Below, piece by piece: positions 2,684 through 55,225 of a stretch of 64,000 bases of DNA; positions within the stretch are counted from its first letter, which is position 1, and each line of letters starts with the position of its first letter. The DNA is taken from positions 62,020 through 126,019 of the forward strand of contig JAYEFY010000048.1 in assembly GCA_034658815.1 (NCBI GenBank), given 5' to 3'. The notes beneath the pieces are model-generated. The model was not told where the DNA came from. It saw nothing but the letters and a program-made list of their open reading frames with translations, and did no database searches. The position numbers and the translations under genes are program-made. The DNA is from Patescibacteria group bacterium. GTDB lineage: Bacteria; Patescibacteriota; Minisyncoccia; Moranbacterales; DUUL01.

Positions 2684-5341
2684 ATGTACCAAAACTGGCA
2701 TGCGCATGCGATTCAAAAAATTCTGAAACAATTGCGAAGTTCACAAAATGGGCTGAGTTCGGCATCAGCGGCTCGGCGGTACGCAAAGAATGGACCGAAT
2801 GTTCTTCCAAAAAAAAAGCCGCTGTCAAAAATCAGGCTTTTTCTGGAACAGTTCAACAATTCGCTGATGTTTATTTTATTCATTACGGTAGCGATCTCGT
2901 TTTTTCTCGGGCATTATTCGGATTCGATCTTTATTTCCATTGTGATCTTTATCAATACATTTGTTGGTTTTTACCAAGAGAGCAAAGCAAATAATTCTCT
3001 GCGTGCGCTGCAGAAAATGGTTCGCGTTAAAGTTCGAGTGATGCGTGATGGAAGGATGAAAGAGATCGACAGTGAACAAATTGTACAGGGAGACGTTATC
3101 TTTTTTAGCCCAGGCGACAAAATTCCGGCGGATTGCCGAATTATCAAATCGAAAGATCTGAAAGCAAACGAATCTTCATTAACGGGAGAATGGCTTTCGG
3201 TTAATAAAAAAATAGGAAAACTCGATCGGGAAACCGCCGTATCTGACAGGTACAACACACTCTTTATGGGCACGTCGGTCGAGATGGGCGAAGCGCGAGC
3301 TGTAGTCGTAAAAACAGGCGTGGAAACCGAGTTTGGAAAAATTGTAGAGCTTGTTAAGCAAACGGATGAGCCTCGAACGCCTCTTCAGAAAAAAATTGCT
3401 CATCTGTCGAGAGTTATCGGCATATTCATTATTGGACTGATAGCGCTTATTATTGCAGAGGGATATTTTATGGGTAAAGATATTGCCGAAATCTTTATTG
3501 CGTCACTGGCGCTGGCTGTTTCCGCAATTCCGGAAGGATTACTACCGGCTATTACGGTTGTTCTTGTTCTAGCCATGAGGCGCATTCTTAAACAAAGAGG
3601 AGTTGTCAAAAAATTGTCCGCGGCTGAAAGCTTGGGTAGTGTTACGGTTGTATGTTCAGACAAAACAGGCACTTTGACTGAAGGAAACATGAAAATGAGC
3701 CATATGGTTACTGACATGTCCGAACTGCTTCCCAATAAGAAATTCGAAAACGCCAATGTTTCCGGTAATCAGCAAAGATCAAACAAGACAGCTTTTACAA
3801 TCATATCTTTAACCAATGATGCGTACATTGAAAATCCGGAAGACGAGTTGCACGAATGGAAAGTAAGGGGATACTTCACAGACAAAGCGTTGCTTCTTGC
3901 CGGAGTGCAAGCAGGCTTTGATATTCAGAAGCTCGAAAAAGAATGTCCTCTGATCGAAAAGCAGAGCTTCAGTTCTCATAAGCGGTACGCGCTTTCCTTG
4001 CGCTCGAAAGGTTCCAAAAAGTATCTTTTTGTGGTTGGAGCTCCTGAAGAATTAATATCCCGTTCGAGTAATATCCACGCTGATGGTTCGCATATTGCGC
4101 TTGAAAAATCGGATAAAAAACATTTGCACAACAAAGTCGACCAAATGACCTCAAAAGGACTGCGTGTTATCGCCTGCGCGTACCGTGAATTGAAAAACGG
4201 GCAAAATGATAAATTAGACAGCCTGGTACACTCATTGTCGTTTGTTGGTTTTGTGGCTCTGCGTGATCCTATTCGCAAGGACGCGAGGCGGGCAATTTTA
4301 GAAATTCAGGAAGCCGGCATACGGCCGATAATAATAACCGGTGATCATAAGCATACGGCTATGGCGGTTGCTCGGGAGGCCGGAATCAATGTTTCTAAAA
4401 GCCAAGTGCTTGAAGGACGCGATATTGAACGAATGAACGGAGCTGAACTCAAAAAACATTCCAAAAGCGTTGCAATTTACGCGCGGGCGCTACCGGAACA
4501 TAAACTCAATGTTATCAAAGCCTTGCATCAAAACAATGAAATTGTCGCAATGTTCGGTGACGGAGTAAACGACGCGCCGGCGCTGAAAGCGGCTGACATC
4601 GGAGTGGCTGTCGGTTCAGGGACGGATGTTGTGAAAGAAGTTGCCGATGTTATTTTGTTAGATGACAATTTTAAAACGATCGTGAAAGCCATCGAACAGG
4701 GAAGAGTAGCGTTTGCAAATATCAGAAAGGTATTTATTTATCTTGTGGCCGATGACTTTACAGAGATATTTTTATTTTTAGGCGCCATGGCGCTTGGTTT
4801 GCCTCTTCCGCTTCTGGCCGCGCAAATTTTATGGATCAATCTCATTGAAGACGGACTGCCGGATATCGCGCTTACCACCGAACAGGAAACTGAGGATGTA
4901 ATGCGGGAAAAGCCAAGGAGGTCTGATGAGCCAATATTGAGTACGACAGTAAAAAAATGGATGATCGCGGTTTTTTCGATCAATAGCCTTATAACTTTTG
5001 CTTTTTTCTGGTTTTTATATCAAACAACTCAAGACATCGTCAAGACAAGGACACTGGTTTTTGCTCTGATGGCGTTTGACTCGCTTGCGTTCGCCTATTC
5101 AGTGCGTTCGCTTAAGAGGACAATATTTCGAAGAGATATTTTTTCCAACAAGATTCTTAATTGGGCTGTTGCCGCAAGTTTTTTACTTTTACTTGTGGCA
5201 ATATATGTTCCGTTCGCGCAAAAGTTTGTCGGAACTGTAGGAATATCATTATCGGGATGGCTTTTTGTTCTTGGCATCACATTTTTTGAAATTATCATAA
5301 TAGAAGTTGCGAAAAAAATAAGTTTTAAAAGCGCGGAATAG
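2684..5341 (+). CDS. P-type cation-transporting ATPase (PIIA-like, Ca2+/Mg2+ type)
   Basis: DKTGTLT phosphorylation motif, TGD, GDGVNDAPALK hinge, ~10 TM segments, 885 aa. Confidence 0.9.
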   Translation: MYQNWHAHAIQKILKQLRSSQNGLSSASAARRYAKNGPNVLPKKKPLSKIRLFLEQFNNSLMFILFITVAISFFLGHYSDSIFISIVIFINTFVGFYQESKANNSLRALQKMVRVKVRVMRDGRMKEIDSEQIVQGDVIFFSPGDKIPADCRIIKSKDLKANESSLTGEWLSVNKKIGKLDRETAVSDRYNTLFMGTSVEMGEARAVVVKTGVETEFGKIVELVKQTDEPRTPLQKKIAHLSRVIGIFIIGLIALIIAEGYFMGKDIAEIFIASLALAVSAIPEGLLPAITVVLVLAMRRILKQRGVVKKLSAAESLGSVTVVCSDKTGTLTEGNMKMSHMVTDMSELLPNKKFENANVSGNQQRSNKTAFTIISLTNDAYIENPEDELHEWKVRGYFTDKALLLAGVQAGFDIQKLEKECPLIEKQSFSSHKRYALSLRSKGSKKYLFVVGAPEELISRSSNIHADGSHIALEKSDKKHLHNKVDQMTSKGLRVIACAYRELKNGQNDKLDSLVHSLSFVGFVALRDPIRKDARRAILEIQEAGIRPIIITGDHKHTAMAVAREAGINVSKSQVLEGRDIERMNGAELKKHSKSVAIYARALPEHKLNVIKALHQNNEIVAMFGDGVNDAPALKAADIGVAVGSGTDVVKEVADVILLDDNFKTIVKAIEQGRVAFANIRKVFIYLVADDFTEIFLFLGAMALGLPLPLLAAQILWINLIEDGLPDIALTTEQETEDVMREKPRRSDEPILSTTVKKWMIAVFSINSLITFAFFWFLYQTTQDIVKTRTLVFALMAFDSLAFAYSVRSLKRTIFRRDIFSNKILNWAVAASFLLLLVAIYVPFAQKFVGTVGISLSGWLFVLGITFFEIIIIEVAKKISFKSAE

Positions 5342-5353
5342 CAGCAAAAGTTT

Positions 5354-5471
5354 AGAGCCTGTCTGAGAACCCCATATCCTGCTGCAATTTCTCCTCCAGA
5401 GGCGGACAAGCATATTTTGGCTGTCCCGCTTAGGCGGGATCGCAACGAAGAGGGTTTTCAGACAGGCTCTT
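5354..5471 (+). repeat. structured intergenic element, family 1 copy A (putative ncRNA or miniature mobile element)
   Basis: 5' agagcctgtctgagaaccc pairs with 3' gggttttcagacaggctct (19 bp). Inner hairpin cccgc-ttag-gcggg. Homologous to 14363-14484 and 39957-40083 with compensatory changes in both stems. Confidence 0.6.
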
Positions 5472-5532
5472 AAAACAAAAAGCATTGTTGAAAAAAATAT
5501 CTTATGTTATCCTATAGTATAGTCCGTTAAGA

Positions 5533-5599
5533 GACTGCTCCCAAACGCTCTTCCTGCTGCAATTCTGAAATTTCGCAGCGAAATACGATACTTGGAAAC
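5533..5599 (+). repeat. GC-rich modular intergenic repeat, family 2 short copy
   Basis: gactgctcccaaac...gaaatttcgc...cttggaaac is related to the termini of the 34120-34250 copy. 35 nt upstream of the ftsK ATG. Also carries the cctgctgcaatt block shared with family 1. Confidence 0.35.
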
Positions 5600-5634
5600 A
5601 GTTTCATAAAACTAATAGTTTCTACTTCTAAATC

Positions 5635-9540: not shown

Positions 9541-9846
9541 ATGAGAAAACATGTGAAAATTGAACGTATTGTTAATCCCCGCCTTGAAGGCAGTGATGTG
9601 CGTGTTAAAAAAACGGGAGCTAATTCTTACCAGATAACAACCGGCAAGCCTGAAAAGCATAAGTTTTCACGATTTAGTTCAAGGCGGGATTCTTTTGACA
9701 GAAAGTTTATCGAGGAATATAATCGCGTCGCGGAACGTGATGATTATTTTGATCTGGGGCATCGTGATACGAAGGACAGCTTAGGCGGTTTGAGAGAAGG
9801 TCTTGAGCGCGGGGATTCGAATTTTGATCTTAAAGTCAGGGAATAA
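9541..9846 (+). CDS. hypothetical protein, tandem paralog 1
   Basis: Shares with the next ORF the pattern TGK..(N/K)F....R(D/E).FDR(K/N)FI...N.V......D...RD....L.G(L/V)RE.LER.D. Confidence 0.45.
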   Translation: MRKHVKIERIVNPRLEGSDVRVKKTGANSYQITTGKPEKHKFSRFSSRRDSFDRKFIEEYNRVAERDDYFDLGHRDTKDSLGGLREGLERGDSNFDLKVRE

Positions 9847-9855
9847 CTAAAAATT

Positions 9856-10209
9856 ATGGGCAATCAACAAAAAATTATTAACCATATCAAAACCATGAGT
9901 AAAACTTTTATTTTTGAAAGAAAAATAGAATTTCGGCTTGGAGGCGAGAATGTTCGGATGGAAAGAATAGGAGTTAATAAAATTCGGCTCTATACCGGTA
10001 AAACAGATAACTTTGATTTTAACAATACGATGAGGCGGGAACAGTTTGACAGAAACTTCATTAACGCGCTCAACCAAGTTCTTAAAGAAGACAAACAGCT
10101 TGACATTGAGGACAGGGATGTTGAGCGAAGGATGGACGGCGTGCGCGAGAGTCTGGAAAGGGACGACAACAAAATCATTTTCAAAATAACATTCCGAATG
10201 CTGCACTAG
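9856..10209 (+). CDS. hypothetical protein, tandem paralog 2
   Basis: See paralog 1 (same conserved pattern, ~30% identity by eye). Confidence 0.45.
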   Translation: MGNQQKIINHIKTMSKTFIFERKIEFRLGGENVRMERIGVNKIRLYTGKTDNFDFNNTMRREQFDRNFINALNQVLKEDKQLDIEDRDVERRMDGVRESLERDDNKIIFKITFRMLH

Positions 10210-14292: not shown

Positions 14293-14362
14293 AAACCGTA
14301 AATTGGTAGATTAGAGCAAGTTTGACTTTTAAATAAAAATCGTATATAATCCGTGGGATACT

Positions 14363-14484
14363 AAGAGTTTGCTTGAAAACTCCATATCCTGCTGCTGCAA
14401 TTTCTCCTCCAGAGGCGAACAAGTATATTTTAGCTGTCGCCTAGGCGAGATCGCAGCGGAAGAGGGTTTTCAAGCAAACTCTAA
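14363..14484 (+). repeat. structured intergenic element, family 1 copy B
   Basis: agagtttgcttgaaaactcc / gggttttcaagcaaactct outer stem. Inner hairpin tcgcc-ta-ggcga. ~80% identical to copy A with covariation. Confidence 0.6.
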
Positions 14485-17863: not shown

Positions 17864-18287
17864 AGTCACAAATGCCACTTCAAGCAGGGTGCCTTTGTCG
17901 TTTTCGCAGTGTACCGCAGACGGATGCGTCCAAATAATAAAAGAAGAAAATTTTTTGTTTTTGCCCGCTAATATCATAATAAGCATTGCCTTTGTCGGCG
18001 AAAAAACAATTAAAGAACTGAATAATCGTTATAGAAGAAAGAACCGAGTGACTGATATCTTGTCGTTTTGTTATGAAAAAAAAGATGATACAATAGCGGG
18101 TGAACTGTTATTGTGCTGGCCGGTGATCAGAAGATACGCGCACGCGGATAAAAAAAATGAAAAAGATGAATTAAGAAAAAATATTGTTCACGGATTACTT
18201 CATGTATTTGGTTTTGAGCATAGCAAGATGATGTTTTCGTTGCAAGATGTTATAATAGAGAGGCTAAGTAAAAGATCTATTTCCTAA
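17850..18287 (+). CDS. ybeY: rRNA maturation endoribonuclease YbeY
   Basis: HGLLHVFGFEH zinc-binding motif. Start taken at the ATG at 17850 (the track ORF begins upstream at 17799), overlapping the yqeY stop by 14 nt. Confidence 0.8.
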   Translation: MNTIEVTNATSSRVPLSFSQCTADGCVQIIKEENFLFLPANIIISIAFVGEKTIKELNNRYRRKNRVTDILSFCYEKKDDTIAGELLLCWPVIRRYAHADKKNEKDELRKNIVHGLLHVFGFEHSKMMFSLQDVIIERLSKRSIS

Positions 18288-25747: not shown

Positions 25748-25749
25748 AT

Positions 25750-25909
25750 TACCTTGAATTACGAAATGGCTTTTACTGCGGTTTCCGCACGAGCGCGATT
25801 TCATCTTTCAAGCTCAATTTTGGTAGCCCTGCTGCGAAAAATCTCGCTTTCAAGCGAACTCGCGCTCGTGCAAAACCCTTGCTACAAACCCATTTCGTAA
25901 TTCAAGGTT
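25750..25909. repeat. ~160-bp extended imperfect palindrome (19-bp perfect outer arms plus nested inner arms)
   Basis: Outer arms accttgaattacgaaatgg / ccatttcgtaattcaaggt. Inner arms ccgcacgagcgcga / tcgcgctcgtgc. Lies in the efp 3' region. Confidence 0.55.
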
Positions 25910-25926
25910 ATTAGAAATGGATAGAT

Positions 25927-30983: not shown

Positions 30984-31094
30984 CGGCAAAATTGTTATTA
31001 GGGATTGTTGCCAAACTAACTTGCTCTGAAAAAAAGCACACTTTATTAAATATTTTCTATTATTTTTTGCAGCTAAAATTATTATTTTTCCGTA

Positions 31095-32204
31095 ATGGGA
31101 ATAAAAATAACAATCGAAAAAGATACAAAACCAAAAAAGGCGAAAGCAAAATCCTTGAAAAAGGTTCGAAGATCGAAAAAAGAAACACCCAAGCGAAAAA
31201 AGGCGGCATCGCAGTTGCGTCATGATCTGACAACAGGAGACTGGGTGGTTATTGCGACCAGCAGGAAAGCGCGTCCGGATGATTTCAAGGATGGCAAATC
31301 GAAGGCAAAACCAAAAGAAGATGATAATGTGAAAAAATGTTTGTTTTGCGACCCCGTCGCTTCAAGACAAGCGCCGGACGTCTTGATCTACAATACATCT
31401 GATGGCGATTGGTCTTTGCGCGTTTTTCCAAACAAATATCCGGCGTTTTCCCGTCCGTCGAGCGGACGCATCCGGCACGAAGAAGAAGGTCCTTATTTTT
31501 GGATGGATGGCGTGGGATATCACGAAGTTATTGTCACAAAAGACCACAAGAAACACATTGGACAAATGGATCCTTTGCGCGTTGCGGAGATTTTTGATGC
31601 TTACCAAATGAGATATATAGAGCTTATGAATAAAAAATCGGTTCGTTATATTGAGATCTTTCATAATCATGGGAAAGCCGCCGGAGCATCTATAACTCAT
31701 CCGCATTCTCAGCTTGCCGCAATTCCTATCATTTCCCCATATGTCAATCTGGAATTGAAGAGTTCGGAGTTATATTATGAAGCAAATAACCAATGCGTCT
31801 TTTGCACTATGATCGAGTGGGAGTTGGAACACAGAAAGCGAATCGTATTTGAAAATGAAATGTTCGCAGTATTCTGCCCGTTTGCGTCGCGAGCGGCATT
31901 TGAAATGTTTGTAATTCCAAAAAAACACAAGTCATATTTTGAGCGTTCTTCTGACGAGGAAAAAGTGGCTGGCGGAGAAGCGCTTCACGAGGCTATTCGA
32001 AAACTGGATGCCGTGCTTGGGAAGCCGTCCTATAATTTCTATCTTCAAACATCACCATGTGACGGAAAAGACTATCCGTATTTTCATTGGCATATAGAAA
32101 TACTTCCGCGTACTTCAACGTGGGCAGGCTTTGAGCTTTCAACCGGCGTCGAGGTTTCCGCGATCGAACCGGAGCGTGCGGCTGAATATCTTCGAAAAGC
32201 TTAA
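31095..32204 (+). CDS. galactose-1-phosphate uridylyltransferase-like HIT-superfamily nucleotidyltransferase
   Basis: KCLFCDPVA zinc motif, FPNKYPAF, HPHSQLAAIP (GalT HxHxQ). K-rich N-terminal extension. Confidence 0.7.
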   Translation: MGIKITIEKDTKPKKAKAKSLKKVRRSKKETPKRKKAASQLRHDLTTGDWVVIATSRKARPDDFKDGKSKAKPKEDDNVKKCLFCDPVASRQAPDVLIYNTSDGDWSLRVFPNKYPAFSRPSSGRIRHEEEGPYFWMDGVGYHEVIVTKDHKKHIGQMDPLRVAEIFDAYQMRYIELMNKKSVRYIEIFHNHGKAAGASITHPHSQLAAIPIISPYVNLELKSSELYYEANNQCVFCTMIEWELEHRKRIVFENEMFAVFCPFASRAAFEMFVIPKKHKSYFERSSDEEKVAGGEALHEAIRKLDAVLGKPSYNFYLQTSPCDGKDYPYFHWHIEILPRTSTWAGFELSTGVEVSAIEPERAAEYLRKA

Positions 32205-32230
32205 AGATAAAATTTGAGTATTCTATTGCT

Positions 32231-34090: not shown

Positions 34091-34119
34091 ATAAAATGTA
34101 AGATATAACAAGGGACTGT

Positions 34120-34250
34120 CTCCAAACTAACTTCTACCGAAAATTTCCTAATCCCGAGTACTCGGGACCAATGCCCCAAGCAGGTGTTCGCTAAAAGCGG
34201 GGCAGTACTCCGTTTTTAGCAGGCGACAGGCAGGGAAGCTGGCTTGGAAA
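34120..34250 (+). repeat. GC-rich modular intergenic repeat, family 2 full-length copy (upstream of fba)
   Basis: gactgtctccaaac...gaaaatttcctaatcccg | agtactcgggaccaatgcc...GC hairpins | cagggaagctggcttggaaac, ending 16 nt before the ATG. Confidence 0.45.
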
Positions 34251-34265
34251 CACCCCTATAAATTT

Positions 34266-35123: not shown

Positions 35124-35450
35124 TAGCCGGCTAGTGATACATCATTTAAAAACCTAACCGTAGCCCTTATCGATTTATCATTAAAAACCTGACTGACTGA
35201 AGGATAAATATAATTAAGACTATCTTTTTTAACAAATTAAATTTCTTTTAACTTTTTATCAATTTTTCTTTTTAATTCTGCTGGATTAAGTGTAGCATAA
35301 ATCTTTCTTAATTTCTCTTTTTCTTTTTCAGAAATGTAGAAAGATTCGGTTTTCGTAAAAAGCAAAAAACAGGCCAATAAAAAAGAGGATTAGAAAAACT
35401 TTGTGAATATGTTTTTCCAATCCCCGCGAAAGTTAGTTTTTGAGTCCTGA

Positions 35451-35783
35451 TTATTCCTCTAAGGATTTTAAATACTCCTTAGCATTTGCAGCTTCTCTAA
35501 TTGCATGGAGCAATATACTCGAGTTAAGCAATTTGGGCGCATCTTCTACTATTGTAGTAAGGCTAGCCACTATGTCAGTTGTCATTTCATTTGTTATTGT
35601 TTCTATATCTCTATGAGACAATAACTCTATATGTCCCCTTAGCCATGATACATTATCATGCAATAGATTTGTACCTTTAAGTAAGCTGGCCATTAAAGTA
35701 GCAGTCGAATTAGCTATTGCTTCAGCTGATTCACTTGCTCTTCTCAGATTTTTATTTTTTAATGATTTGCTTCTATCTTCCAC
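35451..35783 (-). CDS. hypothetical protein
   Basis: ORF only, within the AT-rich IS-associated region. Confidence 0.3.
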   Translation of the reverse strand: MEDRSKSLKNKNLRRASESAEAIANSTATLMASLLKGTNLLHDNVSWLRGHIELLSHRDIETITNEMTTDIVASLTTIVEDAPKLLNSSILLHAIREAANAKEYLKSLEE

Positions 35784-35935
35784 TTTTCCCTCCTTATCCT
35801 ACTCACAATAATTTAAGTGTTTTTTCCAAAGAACATTTTTTATTGCCTTAAGCCAATCTCAAGGCGATACAAAAGCGTAGCAAAACACAATAAAAAAGTC
35901 AAGGCCTATTTTATGAGTTTTTATTTCACTTAGCA

Positions 35936-35969
35936 TAATCACTTTTATGCATATGCATAAAAGTGATTA
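35936..35969. repeat. perfect 34-bp palindrome taatcacttttatgcat|atgcataaaagtgatta at the 3' side of the transposase gene
   Basis: Read directly. Followed by a second hairpin cctctcgtcacg-gt-cgtgagcagagg at 35990-36015. Confidence 0.7.
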
Positions 35970-36069
35970 CATTAAAATTTTTTACCTCTCGTCACGGTCG
36001 TGAGCAGAGGTGAAATTTGGAAATTGTTATTATAATAAGTTTCGCTTGTTGAGAATTCACTTGTTGCGG

Positions 36070-36957
36070 CTAAGTAAAGCGCGTGCAATAAATAAACGAC
36101 AAAAAGATGCCAACCAGTTTTCTAACATGAGTCCAGTTCTTTTGCTCGATATGAGCATTGTCATTTTTCTTGTAAGGTCTGCCTCTGGTAAATTCAATAT
36201 CCTTTTCAATGCAATGTCTGTATAGCTGCCAATTGATAAATTCGCCTCCATTATCAGGATCAATTCCTTTTAAAGAAAAGGGTAGTCTTTCTTCGATATT
36301 ATCTAATCCTTTTTTAATCCTGATTTGAGCTTTTCCCATGACAGCTATGCTTTCTGTCCATTGAGTGCTGATATCAGTAAAAGTAAGGCTATTTATGAAT
36401 TCTCCAGAAGCAGAGTGTCCGCAATGAGCTACCGTATCCAATTTGCCAAATCCAGCTCTTTTCTCATCCCAAGAGGAAGTTTTAATGGGGATTTGTTTTT
36501 TTAACATACTTCCCGGTTTAGTAGTGGAAAATACTTTTTTCTTTTTGATTCTCTTGCTTCTTTTCAGTCTTCTATCAATAGTAGCTGATGATATCTTTAA
36601 TAATTTCTCTTTAACAGAATCAGTAAAAGAAACTTCTTCAAACTTTTCTAAAACTTCAATATATTCAGGAAGCATCGGAGCTAAATTCTGTCCGCAAGGA
36701 TAATCAAATATTTCCCAAATCTTTTTTAACTTCACAATAACATAACCGTCATATTTCTCCCTTCTTTTTCTGTTGATCGGATTGGCATAATCCAAATCTA
36801 TCTTAACGGAAAGTATTTGAATTAAATAGTTTCTGTTTAAAGTTGTGTTAACGCAAAGCTCATCTAAGATACTCCCTTTGCCTGTTCTGTTTGATTTTAA
36901 ATATCTCACCTTAACCTTTTTAACTAATTCTTTTTTAGATTTTTGACTCATTTCCAT
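36070..36957 (-). CDS. DDE transposase (rve integrase-core, IS481/IS3-like), possibly C-terminally truncated
   Basis: N-terminal HTH-like region. LDTVAHCG (D1), GIDPDNGGEFIN (D2), NAHIEQKN (E) in DDE spacing. Very AT-rich. Confidence 0.7.
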   Translation of the reverse strand: MEMSQKSKKELVKKVKVRYLKSNRTGKGSILDELCVNTTLNRNYLIQILSVKIDLDYANPINRKRREKYDGYVIVKLKKIWEIFDYPCGQNLAPMLPEYIEVLEKFEEVSFTDSVKEKLLKISSATIDRRLKRSKRIKKKKVFSTTKPGSMLKKQIPIKTSSWDEKRAGFGKLDTVAHCGHSASGEFINSLTFTDISTQWTESIAVMGKAQIRIKKGLDNIEERLPFSLKGIDPDNGGEFINWQLYRHCIEKDIEFTRGRPYKKNDNAHIEQKNWTHVRKLVGIFLSFIYCTRFT

Positions 36958-37270
36958 AGAGATAGTTATTAATTATTACTATCTCCAAGGTTAGATTTTA
37001 AATGATTTATCGTATAGGCTTTGGGTTAGGTTTTGGATGATTTAATTCGCGGCTTTGACAGTTTCTCTAAAAAAATGTACAGTACATGGCAGGGATTTGA
37101 ATAGATATAAATATAGAGTAGAAATGCTTAACAAATAGATAAAAACATTGCAGCCGCTTGCAACTGAAAACATTAGCAAAGTGATTTATTCAATGGAAAC
37201 CAATTTTTTTTTGCACACACATTTGTTTTTGAATGTTCTTTTGTGCTTAAAATAAACACTGTTTAAATTT

Positions 37271-39280: not shown

Positions 39281-39513
39281 TGCTGTCTGATTAAACCACT
39301 GGTTTACCGGAAGAATCAAGAGAATTTACAGCAAGAAAACCATCACTTATCATCTTAGTGCCGGTGTCAAACCGGCAAAAATAGAAACAACCGGTGTTAC
39401 AGCTAGTGGTAGTCCATTTAAAATTGTTTTATGTAACCCGATTATTCTTTTGAATGTTTTACATTATTGATTTTTTCATCTATAATACTTAATAAAGAAT
39501 TCAAAACAAAAAA

Positions 39514-39954
39514 ATGAAAACAATAATAAAAACAATTAAAATCACTACCGAGAAACAGTTAGAGTTTATTGATGTTACCAGTAAAGTTGAAGAGGTGTTA
39601 GACCTTTCAGGGATGAAAGAAGGGTTTATCGTCGTTTATTCTCCGCACACAACATCATCAATCATAATCAATCAAAATGAGCCGATGTTATTGCAGGATA
39701 TGACGAGAATATTATATAAGCTTGTTCCAATCGATGAACGATACGGACATGATATGTTTGAGCTTACTAAACATGTAAAATCTGATGGGCGCAGTAATGG
39801 CCATAGTCACTGTAAAAGTATTATTCTCGGGTGCAGCGAAACAGTTCCATTTCAAAAAGGAGAAATGATTCTTGGAAGTCGCCAAAGTATTTTTTTTGTT
39901 GAGTTGGATGGCAGTAGAAAGCGCGATTTTTTGGTACAAATCGTGGGGGAATAA
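39514..39954 (+). CDS. YjbQ/UPF0047 family protein
   Basis: Full-length match to the YjbQ pattern (FIDVT..V......G...G...V...HTT.S....NE...L..D.......VP...Y.H). Confidence 0.75.
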   Translation: MKTIIKTIKITTEKQLEFIDVTSKVEEVLDLSGMKEGFIVVYSPHTTSSIIINQNEPMLLQDMTRILYKLVPIDERYGHDMFELTKHVKSDGRSNGHSHCKSIILGCSETVPFQKGEMILGSRQSIFFVELDGSRKRDFLVQIVGE

Positions 39955-39956
39955 TA

Positions 39957-40083
39957 AGAGCCTGTTTGAAAATCCCACATCCTGCTGTAATTTCTTCTCC
40001 AGAAGCCAGAGGCAGACAAGCATATTTTGGCTGCCATGCTTCGGCAGGATCGCAACGGAGAAGGGTTTTCAAACAGACTCTTA
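39957..40083 (+). repeat. structured intergenic element, family 1 copy C
   Basis: aagagcctgtttgaaaatccc / gggttttcaaacagactctt outer stem. Inner hairpin ctgcc-atgcttc-ggcag. 12-nt insertion relative to A and B. Starts 3 nt after the yjbQ stop. Confidence 0.6.
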
Positions 40084-40168
40084 GTTTGTAAGTTCGTTAA
40101 AATGTTATTGGAAACAATACCTTATCGCATTCGGAAGAATGCGTTTTTTGATGCAAAGACCGCGGTGC

Positions 40169-41013: not shown

Positions 41014-41234
41014 CTTACCAGTCATGGAGATTGAGAAAATTACCGGCTAATTAGTACTTTCCAAGATTATTTCCCAAGGTTCAACCTCAAGTATTCTGGG
41101 TTGAACCTTAAAACCGGAATTTTTTACGCTGGAGCAGGCTTGCAGCCCGGTCCAGCGCGAGAAACTAAAGGACCGGGCTGCTAATACACATTTTAACCGG
41201 AATTAGCTTTTTAGAGCTCATTCTAGCAAAAAGT

Positions 41235-42287
41235 GCCATATGTGTTTAGACATTACCAAAATGTTTTATGCACACTCTTTTGTCGGTCTTTGTATTTTAA
41301 TTAAATTATAATTTTCTAAAAATTGATTAGGGCTTTTTCCATTTAAGCTACAATGCCTTAAATCATTGTAATACATATTCCATAATCTAACACGATATTT
41401 CAATTCATCAATACTAGCAAACTTTTCTCGAGAGTATAATCTTCTCTGATCGCTTCCATGGCTTCTTTCAACAGTGCCATTCTGAGCTGGCTTTCCTGGA
41501 TCAATTAAGTAGTGAATAATTTTATTCTTGGCGCAAAACTTATCCAAGTAGTGAAGCTTGGGGTTAAAGGGGTCGGCGCTTTTCAAATAACCGGTATATC
41601 TATTGGTAAATGTGGAATGATTATCTGTCTTTACGGCTCTAATTTCAAAAGGAGCCTTTCTAATTATTTTTTCTAGAAACTTAACAGAGTGGCAATTAGA
41701 TTGTTCGTCATATATTTCCATGTGTCTCCACCTGCTGGACAAGTCTATAGCTGTATACTGATAATATTGCTTATTGGCGACTTTTCCCGGAACATACTTA
41801 ACATCTATTTCAATTATTTCTCCGGGTTTCAATTCACTTCTAATATATTTATACTTCACTCTCTTAATTCTATATTTCCTGACTAAGCCTTCTGTTTTTA
41901 ATATTTTACCGACAGTTCTTTCGTGAATATTGATATTTTCATCTTTTAAATCCCATTTTATCTTTAAAGCGCATTCTTTCTTTTCTTTCCTTAATTCAAT
42001 AACCCTTTCTTTTACTCTAATGGAAGTTTCTTTGGGATTAGTTTTGGGCCTAGTTGATTTAGGAATCAATTCCTCCTCCCCATATTTCTTATACAAGGAA
42101 ATCCATCTTTCTAAACTTCTTTGGCTGTAAGGACATACTTTAGCGGCGTCTTTTAATTTTACTTCTTTGTTATAGATGGGAAGCACCCACCTTAACCTTT
42201 CTTCTTTAATTGTTTTTGGCATATTTATACACATACATGAGAATAATACTATTCTCAGAAAACCGCCATAGGTGTGTGCACATTACC
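41235..42287. mobile_element. IS481-like element bounded by imperfect 24-bp direct repeats
   Basis: gccatatgtgtttagacattacca at 41235-41258 and gccataggtgtgtgcacattacca at 42264-42287 (20/24 identical, same orientation) bracket the transposase gene. No clear terminal inverted repeats found. Confidence 0.45.
41266..42234 (-). CDS. IS481-family transposase (HTH + rve DDE integrase core)
   Basis: N-terminal HTH. KTDNHSTFT (D2), DPGKPAQNGTVERSHGS (E region). 322 aa single ORF, typical of IS481. Confidence 0.8.
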   Translation of the reverse strand: MCINMPKTIKEERLRWVLPIYNKEVKLKDAAKVCPYSQRSLERWISLYKKYGEEELIPKSTRPKTNPKETSIRVKERVIELRKEKKECALKIKWDLKDENINIHERTVGKILKTEGLVRKYRIKRVKYKYIRSELKPGEIIEIDVKYVPGKVANKQYYQYTAIDLSSRWRHMEIYDEQSNCHSVKFLEKIIRKAPFEIRAVKTDNHSTFTNRYTGYLKSADPFNPKLHYLDKFCAKNKIIHYLIDPGKPAQNGTVERSHGSDQRRLYSREKFASIDELKYRVRLWNMYYNDLRHCSLNGKSPNQFLENYNLIKIQRPTKECA

Positions 42288-42408
42288 AGTTTCGCTTGAC
42301 AAAAGATTAAAAGTGGTGTAGAATGTGGCTGAAAGTAGAAGAACAAGTTTTTTAAAAACCTAGATCCGAAATGAAGAACGGATTAAAAGAATATACGGAG
42401 GCATAACT

Positions 42409-47212: not shown

Positions 47213-48472
47213 ATGCAAACAAAACAGGCCTTTACTATTTATGATATTGAAGCTGATGAATTCAAAACTCCTGTTCAAAGCCTTCCCTTATGGAAACTTT
47301 TACTTGAAGCCAGCGGAGTTTTTGTAGTAATTACGTTTATCGTTTTTTTTATTGCCAACTATCAGTACATTCAAAGCCAGCTTGTCGATTGGAGACAAGT
47401 AAAAACCGATGGGAAAGATTTTGTTAAGGATAATGATAATGATAAAATGCCTGACTGGTGGGAGCAGTCTTACGGGCTTAATACAGCAGACTCAATGGAT
47501 GGGATGAAAGACGAGGATAATGATCTTATGCCGAATATTATGGAGTTTCAATTCGGCACGGATCCGCGAAATCCGGACACTGACGGCGATGGATATTTTG
47601 ACGGTGAAGAATATCTGAATGGGTATAATCCAAATGGAGTTGGAAGAATTGACACGGATAAAGATGGAATTCACGATTGGTGGGAAGAATCGAACGGTCT
47701 CAACAAAAAAGACCCAGCTGATAGCTTGCTTGATTATGATAATGATCAGCTCAATAATAAAGAAGAATATGAATATGGCACTAATCCGCGAAATCCGGAC
47801 ACTGACGGCGATGGTTATTCTGATAAGCAAGAAATTAATAGAGGATCTAATCCAATAGGCCGGGGTTTTCTTAATGAGACATCAAAGAATAGCGGCAAAG
47901 ATAAAGATCTTGATAAGCTTGAAATAGATTACGAAAATTTATTTGGAACAGATCCTGAAAATAGAGACACTGACGGCGACGGTTTTAATGACTATCACGA
48001 GTTGACAAGAGGATATGATCCCTCAGGTTCCGGCATGATAGACGCCGTTATTGAAATTCCATCAATTGATGTCGAGGCGCCGATTATTTGGTCTCAAAGC
48101 GAAAAGGAAAAGGAAATTTTGAATGATCTCAGCGATGGAGTCATTCATTATCCGGGAAGCGCTTTCCCCGGGATGCGCGGCAATGTTTATATAACCGGAC
48201 ACAGCAGTTTTTACAGTTGGAGTAAAAGCTCATGGAAAGAAATTTTTAAAGACATCGAACGGCTGGAAAATGGCGACGAAGTGATATTCCACCTGAAACT
48301 TAAAAATAAAAAAAATATTGATATTGTTTATGAAATTTGCTTGTCGGAAATTGTGCAGCCGGATGACGTTCGCTTGTTCAGAGATTATGAAGGATATGAA
48401 TTGACGCTTGTTACATGCTGGCCGATTGGAACAGATCTTAAACGCCTGATGGTAAAGGGCGTTCTTAAGTAG
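47213..48472 (+). CDS. sortase-family transpeptidase with N-terminal TM and three thrombospondin type-3-like Ca-binding repeats
   Basis: N.RNPDTDGDG(Y/F).D x3 (TSP3 D.D.DG..D). C-terminal sortase fold with conserved His (YITGHSSF) and TLVTCWP (TLxTC catalytic Cys). Confidence 0.7.
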   Translation: MQTKQAFTIYDIEADEFKTPVQSLPLWKLLLEASGVFVVITFIVFFIANYQYIQSQLVDWRQVKTDGKDFVKDNDNDKMPDWWEQSYGLNTADSMDGMKDEDNDLMPNIMEFQFGTDPRNPDTDGDGYFDGEEYLNGYNPNGVGRIDTDKDGIHDWWEESNGLNKKDPADSLLDYDNDQLNNKEEYEYGTNPRNPDTDGDGYSDKQEINRGSNPIGRGFLNETSKNSGKDKDLDKLEIDYENLFGTDPENRDTDGDGFNDYHELTRGYDPSGSGMIDAVIEIPSIDVEAPIIWSQSEKEKEILNDLSDGVIHYPGSAFPGMRGNVYITGHSSFYSWSKSSWKEIFKDIERLENGDEVIFHLKLKNKKNIDIVYEICLSEIVQPDDVRLFRDYEGYELTLVTCWPIGTDLKRLMVKGVLK

Positions 48473-53519: not shown

Positions 53520-55037
53520 ATGAGCAAAAATATTTCTGATATTACACAGGAAATTGATGATGTGCTTGAAATGAGCGCATCGGCAAAAAAATCTTTAAAG
53601 AGCAATAAAAATAGTTCTCTAATGAAACAGCTTCTTGAAGATCATCCTATGAAGATGCTGCAAGTCGGTGAAAAAATAGAAGGGCTTGTTGTAGGAATTG
53701 ATTCCAAAGCATTATATATCGATCTTGAATTATTCGGTTCGGGCATTGTCTACGGCAAAGAAATTAAAGATGGCTTTGGGGCAAACAGAAAAAAACTTGA
53801 AATTGGCGATAAAGTTGTGGCTGTTATACAAGATCTTGAAAATGAAGATGGCTATGTCGAGTTATCGATTCGTGAAGCTGTTCTTGAGGAAGTATGGAAG
53901 GATCTTATCCAAAAGAAAGATAGCCGTGAACCGGTTGATACAAAGATTCTTGATGCAAATAAAGGCGGTCTTATGGTTGAAATTAATGGTGTAACGGGAT
54001 TTATGCCCGTAAGCCAGTTGACATCGGAACATTATCCTCGCGTTGAAGACGGGGATAAAAATAAAATTCTTGAGATCTTAAGGACTTATATCGGTACCGA
54101 AATGTCGGTAAGTGTTTTAGATGTTGATCAACAGGAAGACAAACTTATTGTTTCTGAAAAAGAGGCAAATCGTGACAAGGAAAAAACAGCGATTTCCGAG
54201 CTTAAGGTCGGAAATATAATTGAAGGAGACGTGAGCGGGGTTGTTGACTTTGGCGCGTTTGTCAAATTTTTTCCGCCTTCAAAAAAAGGTTCAATGAGAG
54301 AAGAAGATAAACTCGAAGGACTTGTGCATATATCACAACTTGATTGGCAGTTAATTGATGATCCGCGAAAAATTATTAAAGTTGGTGATAGGATCAAAGC
54401 AAAAATTATCTCCATTGATGACACGAGAATTTCACTATCTGTTAGAGATCTCAAGAAAGATCCTTGGGTTGCAGCCAATGAAAAATATGGCAAGGACGAT
54501 ATCGTCAAAGGAAAAGTGCACAAAATCAACCATTTCGGAGCATTTGTATATCTTGATAACGACATTCATGGACTGGCCCATGTTAGCGGTTTTGAAGCAT
54601 ATCCGCAGAAAGGCATAGACGAAATTGTTAAAATAGGTGAGGAATACATGTGGCAAATTATGTCGATAGAGCCAAGCGAGCACCGTATGGGGCTTAAATA
54701 TGCTGGTGAAACCGAAAAAGTGAAGCCCTCTAAAGTTGGCGAACGAAAGGAGATCAGAGAGCCGGGAAATAAAAAAGAAGATAAAAAGAATTTTAAGAAC
54801 AGGAAGAAGAAAGAAGACAAAAAAGAAATGAGAAAAAGCGTGAAAAATGGAGGAGAGCCGAAGGATAAAAAGGAAGAGAGAAAGAAGAAAAAAGACGATG
54901 ATAAAAATGGCAAGAAGAAAAAACGAGACGGTAAGAAAGAATCGGATAAGAAAAAAGAGCCGAAAGATAAGAATGGCGGCGAGAAAAAAGAAAAGAAGGA
55001 TAAAAAGATAAAAACCGATAATAAAAGTCTGTCTTAA
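53520..55037 (+). CDS. rpsA: 30S ribosomal protein S1 (four S1 domains) with K/E-rich tail
   Basis: Repeated S1 OB-fold domains (G..V.G.V......GAFV.), ~120-aa Lys/Glu/Asp-rich C-terminus. Confidence 0.85.
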   Translation: MSKNISDITQEIDDVLEMSASAKKSLKSNKNSSLMKQLLEDHPMKMLQVGEKIEGLVVGIDSKALYIDLELFGSGIVYGKEIKDGFGANRKKLEIGDKVVAVIQDLENEDGYVELSIREAVLEEVWKDLIQKKDSREPVDTKILDANKGGLMVEINGVTGFMPVSQLTSEHYPRVEDGDKNKILEILRTYIGTEMSVSVLDVDQQEDKLIVSEKEANRDKEKTAISELKVGNIIEGDVSGVVDFGAFVKFFPPSKKGSMREEDKLEGLVHISQLDWQLIDDPRKIIKVGDRIKAKIISIDDTRISLSVRDLKKDPWVAANEKYGKDDIVKGKVHKINHFGAFVYLDNDIHGLAHVSGFEAYPQKGIDEIVKIGEEYMWQIMSIEPSEHRMGLKYAGETEKVKPSKVGERKEIREPGNKKEDKKNFKNRKKKEDKKEMRKSVKNGGEPKDKKEERKKKKDDDKNGKKKKRDGKKESDKKKEPKDKNGGEKKEKKDKKIKTDNKSLS

Positions 55038-55153
55038 AAGTCCACGCTCTACTGCAAATTCCAGATTCCGGCTGTTCCGAGTGCTCACTCAGGATTTATC
55101 ACTCGTCCCATCACTCGCGAACGATGGAACTCGCTCGCCGCGGCGAGTACTCC

Positions 55154-55225
55154 GCATATGCTTCCTTGTGCTTCATCCCGCCTCGGCGGGATCGCGGCGA
55201 AAGAAATTTTCAAAACAGGCTTTTA
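55154..55225 (+). repeat. structured intergenic element, family 1 partial/degenerate copy D (3' half)
   Basis: gcatatgc...cccgcc-tc-ggcgggatcgcggcgaaagaaattttcaaaacaggctttt aligns with the 3' half of copies A-C. The 5' half is replaced by an unrelated GC-rich hairpin region. Confidence 0.45.

Follow-up and report, generated by a model that had tools for sequence, protein, structure and literature searches.

A probably MITE-like palindromic repeat family at gene ends in a Patescibacteria genome, and a seven-base duplication in its copy downstream of yjbQ

The window analysed here is a 64-kb stretch of DNA from a Patescibacteria MAG, and the feature under study is a palindromic repeat directly 3' of a yjbQ-like gene (39514-39954, + strand; recognised through PF01894 homologues, the closest 94% identical). 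Homologues of YjbQ and FtsK assign the window to Patescibacteria, close to Moranbacteria, and the FtsK is 100% identical to a protein of a Patescibacteria MAG. The stop codon of this ORF, a TAA, occupies 39952-39954, the next bases read TA-AGAGCC..., and the repeat, copy C of what we call family 1, extends on the + strand from 39955 to 40083 as a TA, a core at 39957-40081 and a second TA (inverted repeat I6; both arms recovered by nhmmer). It starts 1 nt after the yjbQ stop, and the initial annotation was right to place it against that gene. With CM R1 the copy scores 123.9 bits on the + strand versus 32.7 on the − strand. Further 3' is an intrinsic terminator-like hairpin with a T-run (40126-40150, hairpin 40126-40143, + strand), which is conserved in the syntenic contig 9 (L005) of the nearest genome compared, MAG GCA_030626045.1, where copy C is absent. 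A promoter-like site at 39458-39486 and this terminator bracket yjbQ and copy C together, and copy C appears to be part of the yjbQ 3' UTR, between stop and terminator.

All statements on family 1 cover six copies, A to D in the window and E and F in GCA_030626045.1, and these are imperfect palindromes of 105-205 nt. In each the order is TA, a 19-nt arm, a 5' inner arm, a variable core, a 3' inner arm, the complementary 19-nt arm and TA. The 19-nt arm has the family consensus AGAGCCTGTTTGAAAACCC, the terminal repeat sequence is GAGCCTGTTTGAAAA and the termini of the element are TAAGAGCC...GGCTCTTA. Inverted-repeat and pairing analysis of copy C pairs the 5' arm AGAGCCTGTTTGAAAATCC (39957-39975, +) with the 3' arm GGGTTTTCAAACAGACTCT (40063-40081, +) in a 19-bp stem of 17 Watson-Crick pairs, one G.U and one C x A. 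Family-wide the terminal inverted repeats have arms of 19-22 nt that are 90-95% complementary, and over the six copies 95.6% of the terminal-stem positions are paired. In 8 of the 19 pairs both sides have changed; none of 500 shuffles reached this, and slid controls were also far off. The 5' inner arm (CACATCCTGCTGTAATTTCT at 39976-39995 in copy C, + strand; family consensus CCATATCCTGCTGCAATTTC) is near-invariant over A, B, C, E and F, where C departs from it at two substituted positions and B by an inserted CTG. The 3' inner arm consists of GGCRRGATCGCRRCG plus a purine tract of 7-8 nt; copy C has GGCAGGATCGCAAC at 40043-40056 (+) as its form of this motif, and the pattern occurs in all four window copies versus zero expected, and also in E and F. 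Candidate inner helices of the family are UGCAAUUUC/GGGAUCGCA and AUCCUGC/GCRGGAU.

The core is where the copies part company: C has a 7-nt duplication, B a CTG expansion paired with an A-to-G change that lengthens pairing, E a deletion of about 20 nt, and F and D carry 60-80 nt of extra unrelated sequence. A local hairpin beside the conserved GATCGC motif recurs with differing sequences (CCCGC/GCGGG, UCGC/GCGA and CUGCC/GGCAG). The element is non-coding, only short frames being present in six-frame translations of the copies, and a concatenated six-frame peptide query, aimed at gene calls running into copies, matched no protein. At 46-51% GC, against 39% for the genome (0.38-0.41 in the window), it is not AT-rich, unlike the typical, though not strictly defining, state of MITEs. 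A possible degenerate relic of family 1 lies in the ftsK leader at window positions 5528-5600, having TAAGAG, CCTGCTGCAATT and TCGCAGCGAA in common with the family and no clear 3' arm; its scores are marginal (CM 16-25 bits; nhmmer E = 1.2) and it is absent from the syntenic contig L015.

The sequence difference that drew attention to copy C falls within this core. The strings quoted in the initial annotation are accurate, copy C having ttcttctccagaagccagagg where A and B have ttctcctccagagg, and the 3' side reading ggagaaggg in C, gaagaggg in A and ggaagaggg in B (at greater length, GGAGAAGGG in C, GGAAGAGGG in B and GAAGAGGG in A). The insertion, put there at 12 nt, is in fact of 7: the two quoted strings differ by 21 − 14 = 7, and the alignment holds one 7-nt MAFFT gap. 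It is a tandem duplication specific to C (39999-40012, +), in which CCAGAAG (39999-40005) is followed by CCAGAGG (40006-40012), the units being identical at six of seven positions, and A and B have a single CCAGAGG; in a single register such a match has a chance probability of 0.0013. In the copy C MFE the duplication gives a C-specific pairing of GAAGC (40002-40006) with GCUUC (40038-40042), and removing the 7 nt costs 3.8 kcal/mol. These 7 nt may well have arisen as a slippage duplication within the variable core. The extra bases of copy C are an ordinary 7-base tandem duplication in a variable middle and not a new functional helix, and the copy-specific indel is, by itself, of little consequence. 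The other option first offered for it, an evolving variable stem, was broadly right, no two copies having the same centre.

The helix that the insertion was said to create does exist as a complement, CTTCTCC (39994-40000, +) being the exact 7-bp reverse complement of GGAGAAG (40057-40063, +), the latter within the conserved purine tract and with its last G common to the terminal stem. Creation by the insertion is, however, wrong, since the complement arises from three substitutions, the CTTCTCC strand is upstream and overlaps the duplicated unit by 2 nt, and the homologous columns of A and B (CUCCUCC/GGAAGAG) already make five or six of the seven pairs and have a single C x A mismatch. Against these columns copy C shows one double change, from C-G to U-A, and the repair of the C x A mismatch, which speaks for a copy-specific helix; what tells against it is that a comparative signal of this size was reached by 170 of 500 shuffles and comes from one copy or lineage, and that the seven pairs have a probability of 0.001-0.004 in the copy C RNA ensemble, the helix being predicted to be populated at less than 1%. 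The best copy C structure that contains it lies at −46.8 kcal/mol against −49.7 for the MFE (ddG +2.9 kcal/mol), and a perfect 7-bp complement turns up in 19% of dinucleotide shuffles of the C interior, with at least two in 5.8%. The MFE of copy F contains an analogous UCUUCC/GGAAGA helix. In copy E the 5' strand has shrunk to UUUCC. Predicted folds place the purine tract opposite the 5' stem or CAUAUCC region in A, B, C and E, and pair it with interior sequence only in D and F. Copy C has a second perfect 7-bp complement, ATCCTGC (39979-39985) with GCAGGAT (40044-40050), a pairing also available in A, E and F with one G.U; it crosses CTTCTCC/GGAGAAG, so the two cannot share a nested fold and would be mutually exclusive or form a pseudoknot. 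Overall the comparison of copies is suggestive but thin for CTTCTCC/GGAGAAG, and the modelled energetics make it thermodynamically minor and argue against a dominant role. It may be a minor alternative pairing of a pyrimidine run with the conserved purine tract that competes with the consensus hairpin.

Copy A (5352-5472, or 5354-5472 without the leading TA; + strand; CM R1 139.2 bits) follows the stop of a P-type ATPase gene (2684-5341; Pfam) at a distance of about 12 nt. Copy B (14362-14484, or 14364-14484 without the leading TA; + strand; CM R1 127 bits) lies 70 nt downstream of the upstream stop. A promoter-like site at 14322-14350, conserved also in L015, a more distant relative, precedes it by 12 nt and puts it in the lepB leader. 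Copy D (55022-55225, +), which is long and divergent and has both arms recognised by nhmmer (E = 3.8e-09 and 3.8e-11), contains the TAA at which the ORF of an S1-domain protein (53520-55037) ends, so the repeat there supplies the last codons and the stop. The first bases of the 105-nt copy E (L005, 4196-4300) form the TAG stop of a GalT-like gene, and copy F, on the − strand of contig L009 of the same MAG (6757 to 6577), is overlapped by the end of a UvrD-like ORF that terminates within the element and likewise takes its last codons and stop from it, copy and gene being co-oriented on that strand of the contig. All six copies are thus co-oriented with the upstream gene and five of them overlap a stop codon or come within 12 nt of one; were both orientations equally likely, co-orientation of six in six would have a chance of about 1/64. 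GC skew is positive across the whole window and its four copies are all on the + strand, so gene direction, replication direction and element orientation are inseparable here.

Hairpins immediately after stop codons raise the matter of whether the element is distinct at all. It might simply be a transcription terminator, or an attC-like site of the kind that ends integron cassettes and shares a variable centre with it; we consider this very improbable. Identity with a terminator was rejected, the stem having no T-run after it and the real, canonical terminator of the copy C locus being a separate structure further 3'. Identity with attC was likewise rejected, the termini having no RYYYAAC/GTTRRRY core sites, and no cassette arrays and no nearby integron integrase being seen: the copies are 9-25 kb apart and follow housekeeping genes that are syntenic in relatives without the element.

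Comparison with relatives indicates that the element comes and goes. L005 keeps the gene order of window 28-49 kb, with most aligned blocks at 86-91% nucleotide identity and two at 75-78%, and its copy C site is empty (9977-9996), the window having 147 extra nt there; the L005 yjbQ site reads GGGGAGTAG-TCATCGC-TGGAAACA, straight into the conserved terminator hairpin. Conversely the copy E site, filled in L005, is empty in the window (spacer at about 32200-32215), and the copy B site is empty in L015, though the lepB promoter (TTGACT-17-TATAAT) is conserved there. With orthologous sites filled and empty in both directions, the element must be inserted or lost. No family-1 copy was found in relatives at about 75% YjbQ identity (L007, L012-L014) or in L015 and L016. 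Each of the six copies has a TA at both ends, and a 3-nt TTA/TAA flanking repeat is exact only in A and B (two of six). At the empty site of copy E a single TTA/TA remains, alongside a further difference in the form of a 6-nt indel, and the TA may itself belong to an inverted repeat TAAGAG...CTCTTA, so a target-site duplication is unproven.

A pattern scan of GTDB genomes gave E and F, in one related MAG, as its only real matches; four matches in a JGI metagenome scan were discarded as chance hits to GC-rich coding DNA. The pattern scan of viral contigs gave no family-1 match, nor did blastn find one in plasmids or phages. A known Rfam family was rejected, the 64-kb window having no covariance-model match at or near the gathering score, with chance-level matches only around C (E > 2) and none at E <= 1 around A, D and F. 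An autonomous partner was not found in the window either, where the only transposase ORF (rve type, 41266-42234) has unrelated ends; that the family ends might be those of the IS481-like element to which this ORF belongs, or of the island at 35132-37050, was considered and rejected for want of common termini.

Another reading is that the family is a structured RNA with a function in the UTRs that carry it, such as a hairpin that blocks decay or directs RNase processing, and that its helices are under selection, in which case the changes in C would be a real remodelling of an alternative helix. The double-sided changes in the terminal stem, the lengthened pairing in B, the compensatory change and mismatch repair on CTTCTCC/GGAGAAG, the near-invariant 5' inner arm, the strict orientation relative to genes and the analogous helix in the MFE of F are all consistent with it, as are the RNA folding z-scores of −4.5 to −5.8 on the + strand. 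However the − strand folds about as well, and the stem has four G.U against two C x A, a tally that shows a preference for neither strand. The element also follows unrelated genes, is present or absent between close relatives and conserves neither the length nor the sequence of its interior, and the C helix is, as above, readily matched by shuffles and thermodynamically minor. Templated mutation in quasi-palindromes can, besides, mimic covariation without selection. On balance we hold the RNA module to be unlikely, if still a reading of some weight.

Fixed orientation could alternatively reflect a DNA process acting on one strand, in which a HUH enzyme of the IS200/IS605 or REP/RAYT kind, or some other recombinase that recognises hairpins, mobilises a single-strand DNA hairpin strand-specifically and gives it a constant leading-strand orientation. 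The four + strand copies under positive GC skew would fit, as would the co-orientation of F with its gene on the opposite contig strand, the conservation of stem pairing over stem sequence and the recurrence of a local hairpin next to GATCGC in different sequences. Against this, no Y1/HUH gene was seen among the window ORFs that were scanned or in the loci with a Pfam gene table, no tetra- or pentanucleotide is conserved on the left flank, IS200/IS605 ends do not typically consist of long perfect inverted repeats with TA at either side, and gene orientation and replication direction are confounded in the window; we judge such mobilisation improbable. A similarly slim chance attaches to the family being a strand-specifically inserted, hairpin-dependent element with a selected RNA or ssDNA fold, having covarying stems around a near-invariant CCAUAUCCUGCUGCAAUUUC / GAUCGC core. 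Were that so, it would be a previously undescribed structured mobile module targeting stop-codon-proximal sites in streamlined Patescibacteria genomes, and the changes in C would record a switch between mutually exclusive helices.

The reading we favour, and regard as somewhat probable, is that copy C belongs to a lineage-restricted, non-autonomous palindromic MITE-like repeat resembling ERIC and Correia elements. The copies are non-coding and shorter than 500 bp, they have terminal inverted repeats of the class of about 4-30 bp, and they are dispersed and polymorphic, all of which are MITE features. The element would insert at TA-containing sites at gene ends, always oriented as its genes are, and would for that reason be transcribed within their UTRs; co-transcription with neighbouring genes is what the arrangement suggests. 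Its RNA would fold into a long hairpin, and the core between the arms may change freely through the replication slippage, deletion, insertion and templated changes typical of quasi-palindromes. Mobilisation would be in trans by a putative transposase, perhaps a TA-targeting DDE enzyme given the TA flanks, and the GAG termini with TTA/TAA flanks recall the ends of the IS5 family; candidate DDE transposases are those of the IS630 type (TA target) and the IS5 type (TNA target). Certain features sit awkwardly with the MITE-like reading. The terminal repeats vary with compensation and the 5' inner arm is near-invariant, the reverse of the usual MITE pattern, a hint that selection acts on the pairing and not on a sequence bound by a transposase, and cut-and-paste transposition alone does not explain an orientation bias of six in six. 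These two points, together with the lack of a partner IS in the window and the unproven duplication, keep the RNA-module and DNA-hairpin readings alive.

Family 1 is not the only mobile or palindromic sequence in this part of the genome. A second, unrelated palindromic family with GGGAYTGTYKCCAAAC-type arms has one full copy of about 150 nt after the TIM gene (window 34110-34258), two partial 5' arms (window 31000-31032 and 1687-1719) and, in the related MAG, a perfect 22-bp palindrome (L009, 6380-6429). A 164-nt nested hairpin at window 25748-25911, with 26-nt arms that are 92% complementary and 23-nt inner arms, is placed between the gene of a 1264-aa protein and a minus-strand ORF reading towards it, and matches neither family 1 nor Rfam. 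Absent from the syntenic L005 are the IS481-like element at window 41017-42295, whose ORF with an rve integrase core is on the minus strand, and a 1.9-kb island at window 35132-37050 with two minus-strand ORFs without a Pfam match and, inside it, a perfect 34-nt palindrome at 35936-35969. In L015 unrelated palindromic elements occupy equivalent gene ends (9757-9830 and 18163-18270, after the ATPase and ADK genes), so gene-end hairpin insertions seem recurrent in this lineage. Of another kind are three tandem-like repeats at window 47543-48023, which encode Asp-rich TSP3-type calcium-binding motifs in a protein upstream of a sortase-like region.

Patescibacteria (CPR) have small and compact genomes, and a repeat that inserts right at the end of housekeeping genes, at times contributing the stop codon, is useful in them for tracking recent genome dynamics and the remodelling of UTRs. 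In the literature searched no MITE family is described from Patescibacteria/CPR genomes, and on the best reading family 1 is a new repeat family of MITE-like kind. For annotation, the family explains several "structured" intergenic hairpins that could otherwise be mistaken for regulatory RNAs.

Precedent for such elements is considerable: the defining features of MITEs and the cases of ERIC, Correia and QMITE2 have been set out together, including location at gene 3' ends, effects on transcripts through RNase E or RNase III, and stable hairpin transcripts (PMC10969869). Likeness to the REP/REPIN and RAYT system lies in extragenic palindromes whose stems keep their pairing by compensatory change and whose presumed mobile form is the hairpin. 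REPs measure 20-40 nt and bear a GTAG or CGTC tag at one end (PMC3733652), whereas family 1 is of 105-205 nt with neither tag at either end, and no RAYT gene was seen among the genes scanned. QMITE2 of Coxiella burnetii, a type II prokaryotic MITE, is similarly small and non-coding with terminal inverted repeats; it is found mostly in the 3' UTRs of ORFs and has a stable predicted hairpin transcript (PMC10969869). Its direct repeats are clear, at 7-9 bp, in contrast to family 1, which is flanked by TA (or TTA/TAA) only with duplication unproven, and for which no related IS is known.

Closer resemblances are to ERIC and Correia elements. The six family-1 copies are uniformly oriented and come from Patescibacteria MAG sequence, whereas ERICs occur in both orientations. 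Family 1 also shows no homology to the 127-bp ERIC consensus: blastn (word size 11) gave no match to it in 5,426 complete E. coli genomes, a species of which K-12 is reported to carry about 30 ERIC copies (PMC10969869). Like family 1, the ERIC/IRU repeats of the Enterobacteriaceae and Vibrionaceae are imperfect palindromes, of about 120 nt in transcribed intergenic DNA, and come in several sizes through internal deletion or insertion. Their copies also lie at gene 3' ends, where they can alter transcript fate (PMC10969869), and vary in number and position between related genomes. The Correia elements of Neisseria (CREE/NEMIS) are unrelated to family 1 in sequence, neither a promoter nor an IHF site was recognised within the family-1 element, and the compensated variation of the terminal repeats is a further difference. 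Correia elements are co-transcribed with their neighbours and their inverted-repeat RNA hairpin is cleaved by RNase III (PMC10969869), and family 1 is like them in its size class of 100-200 nt, its long terminal inverted repeats, the TA at the insertion site and its length variants.
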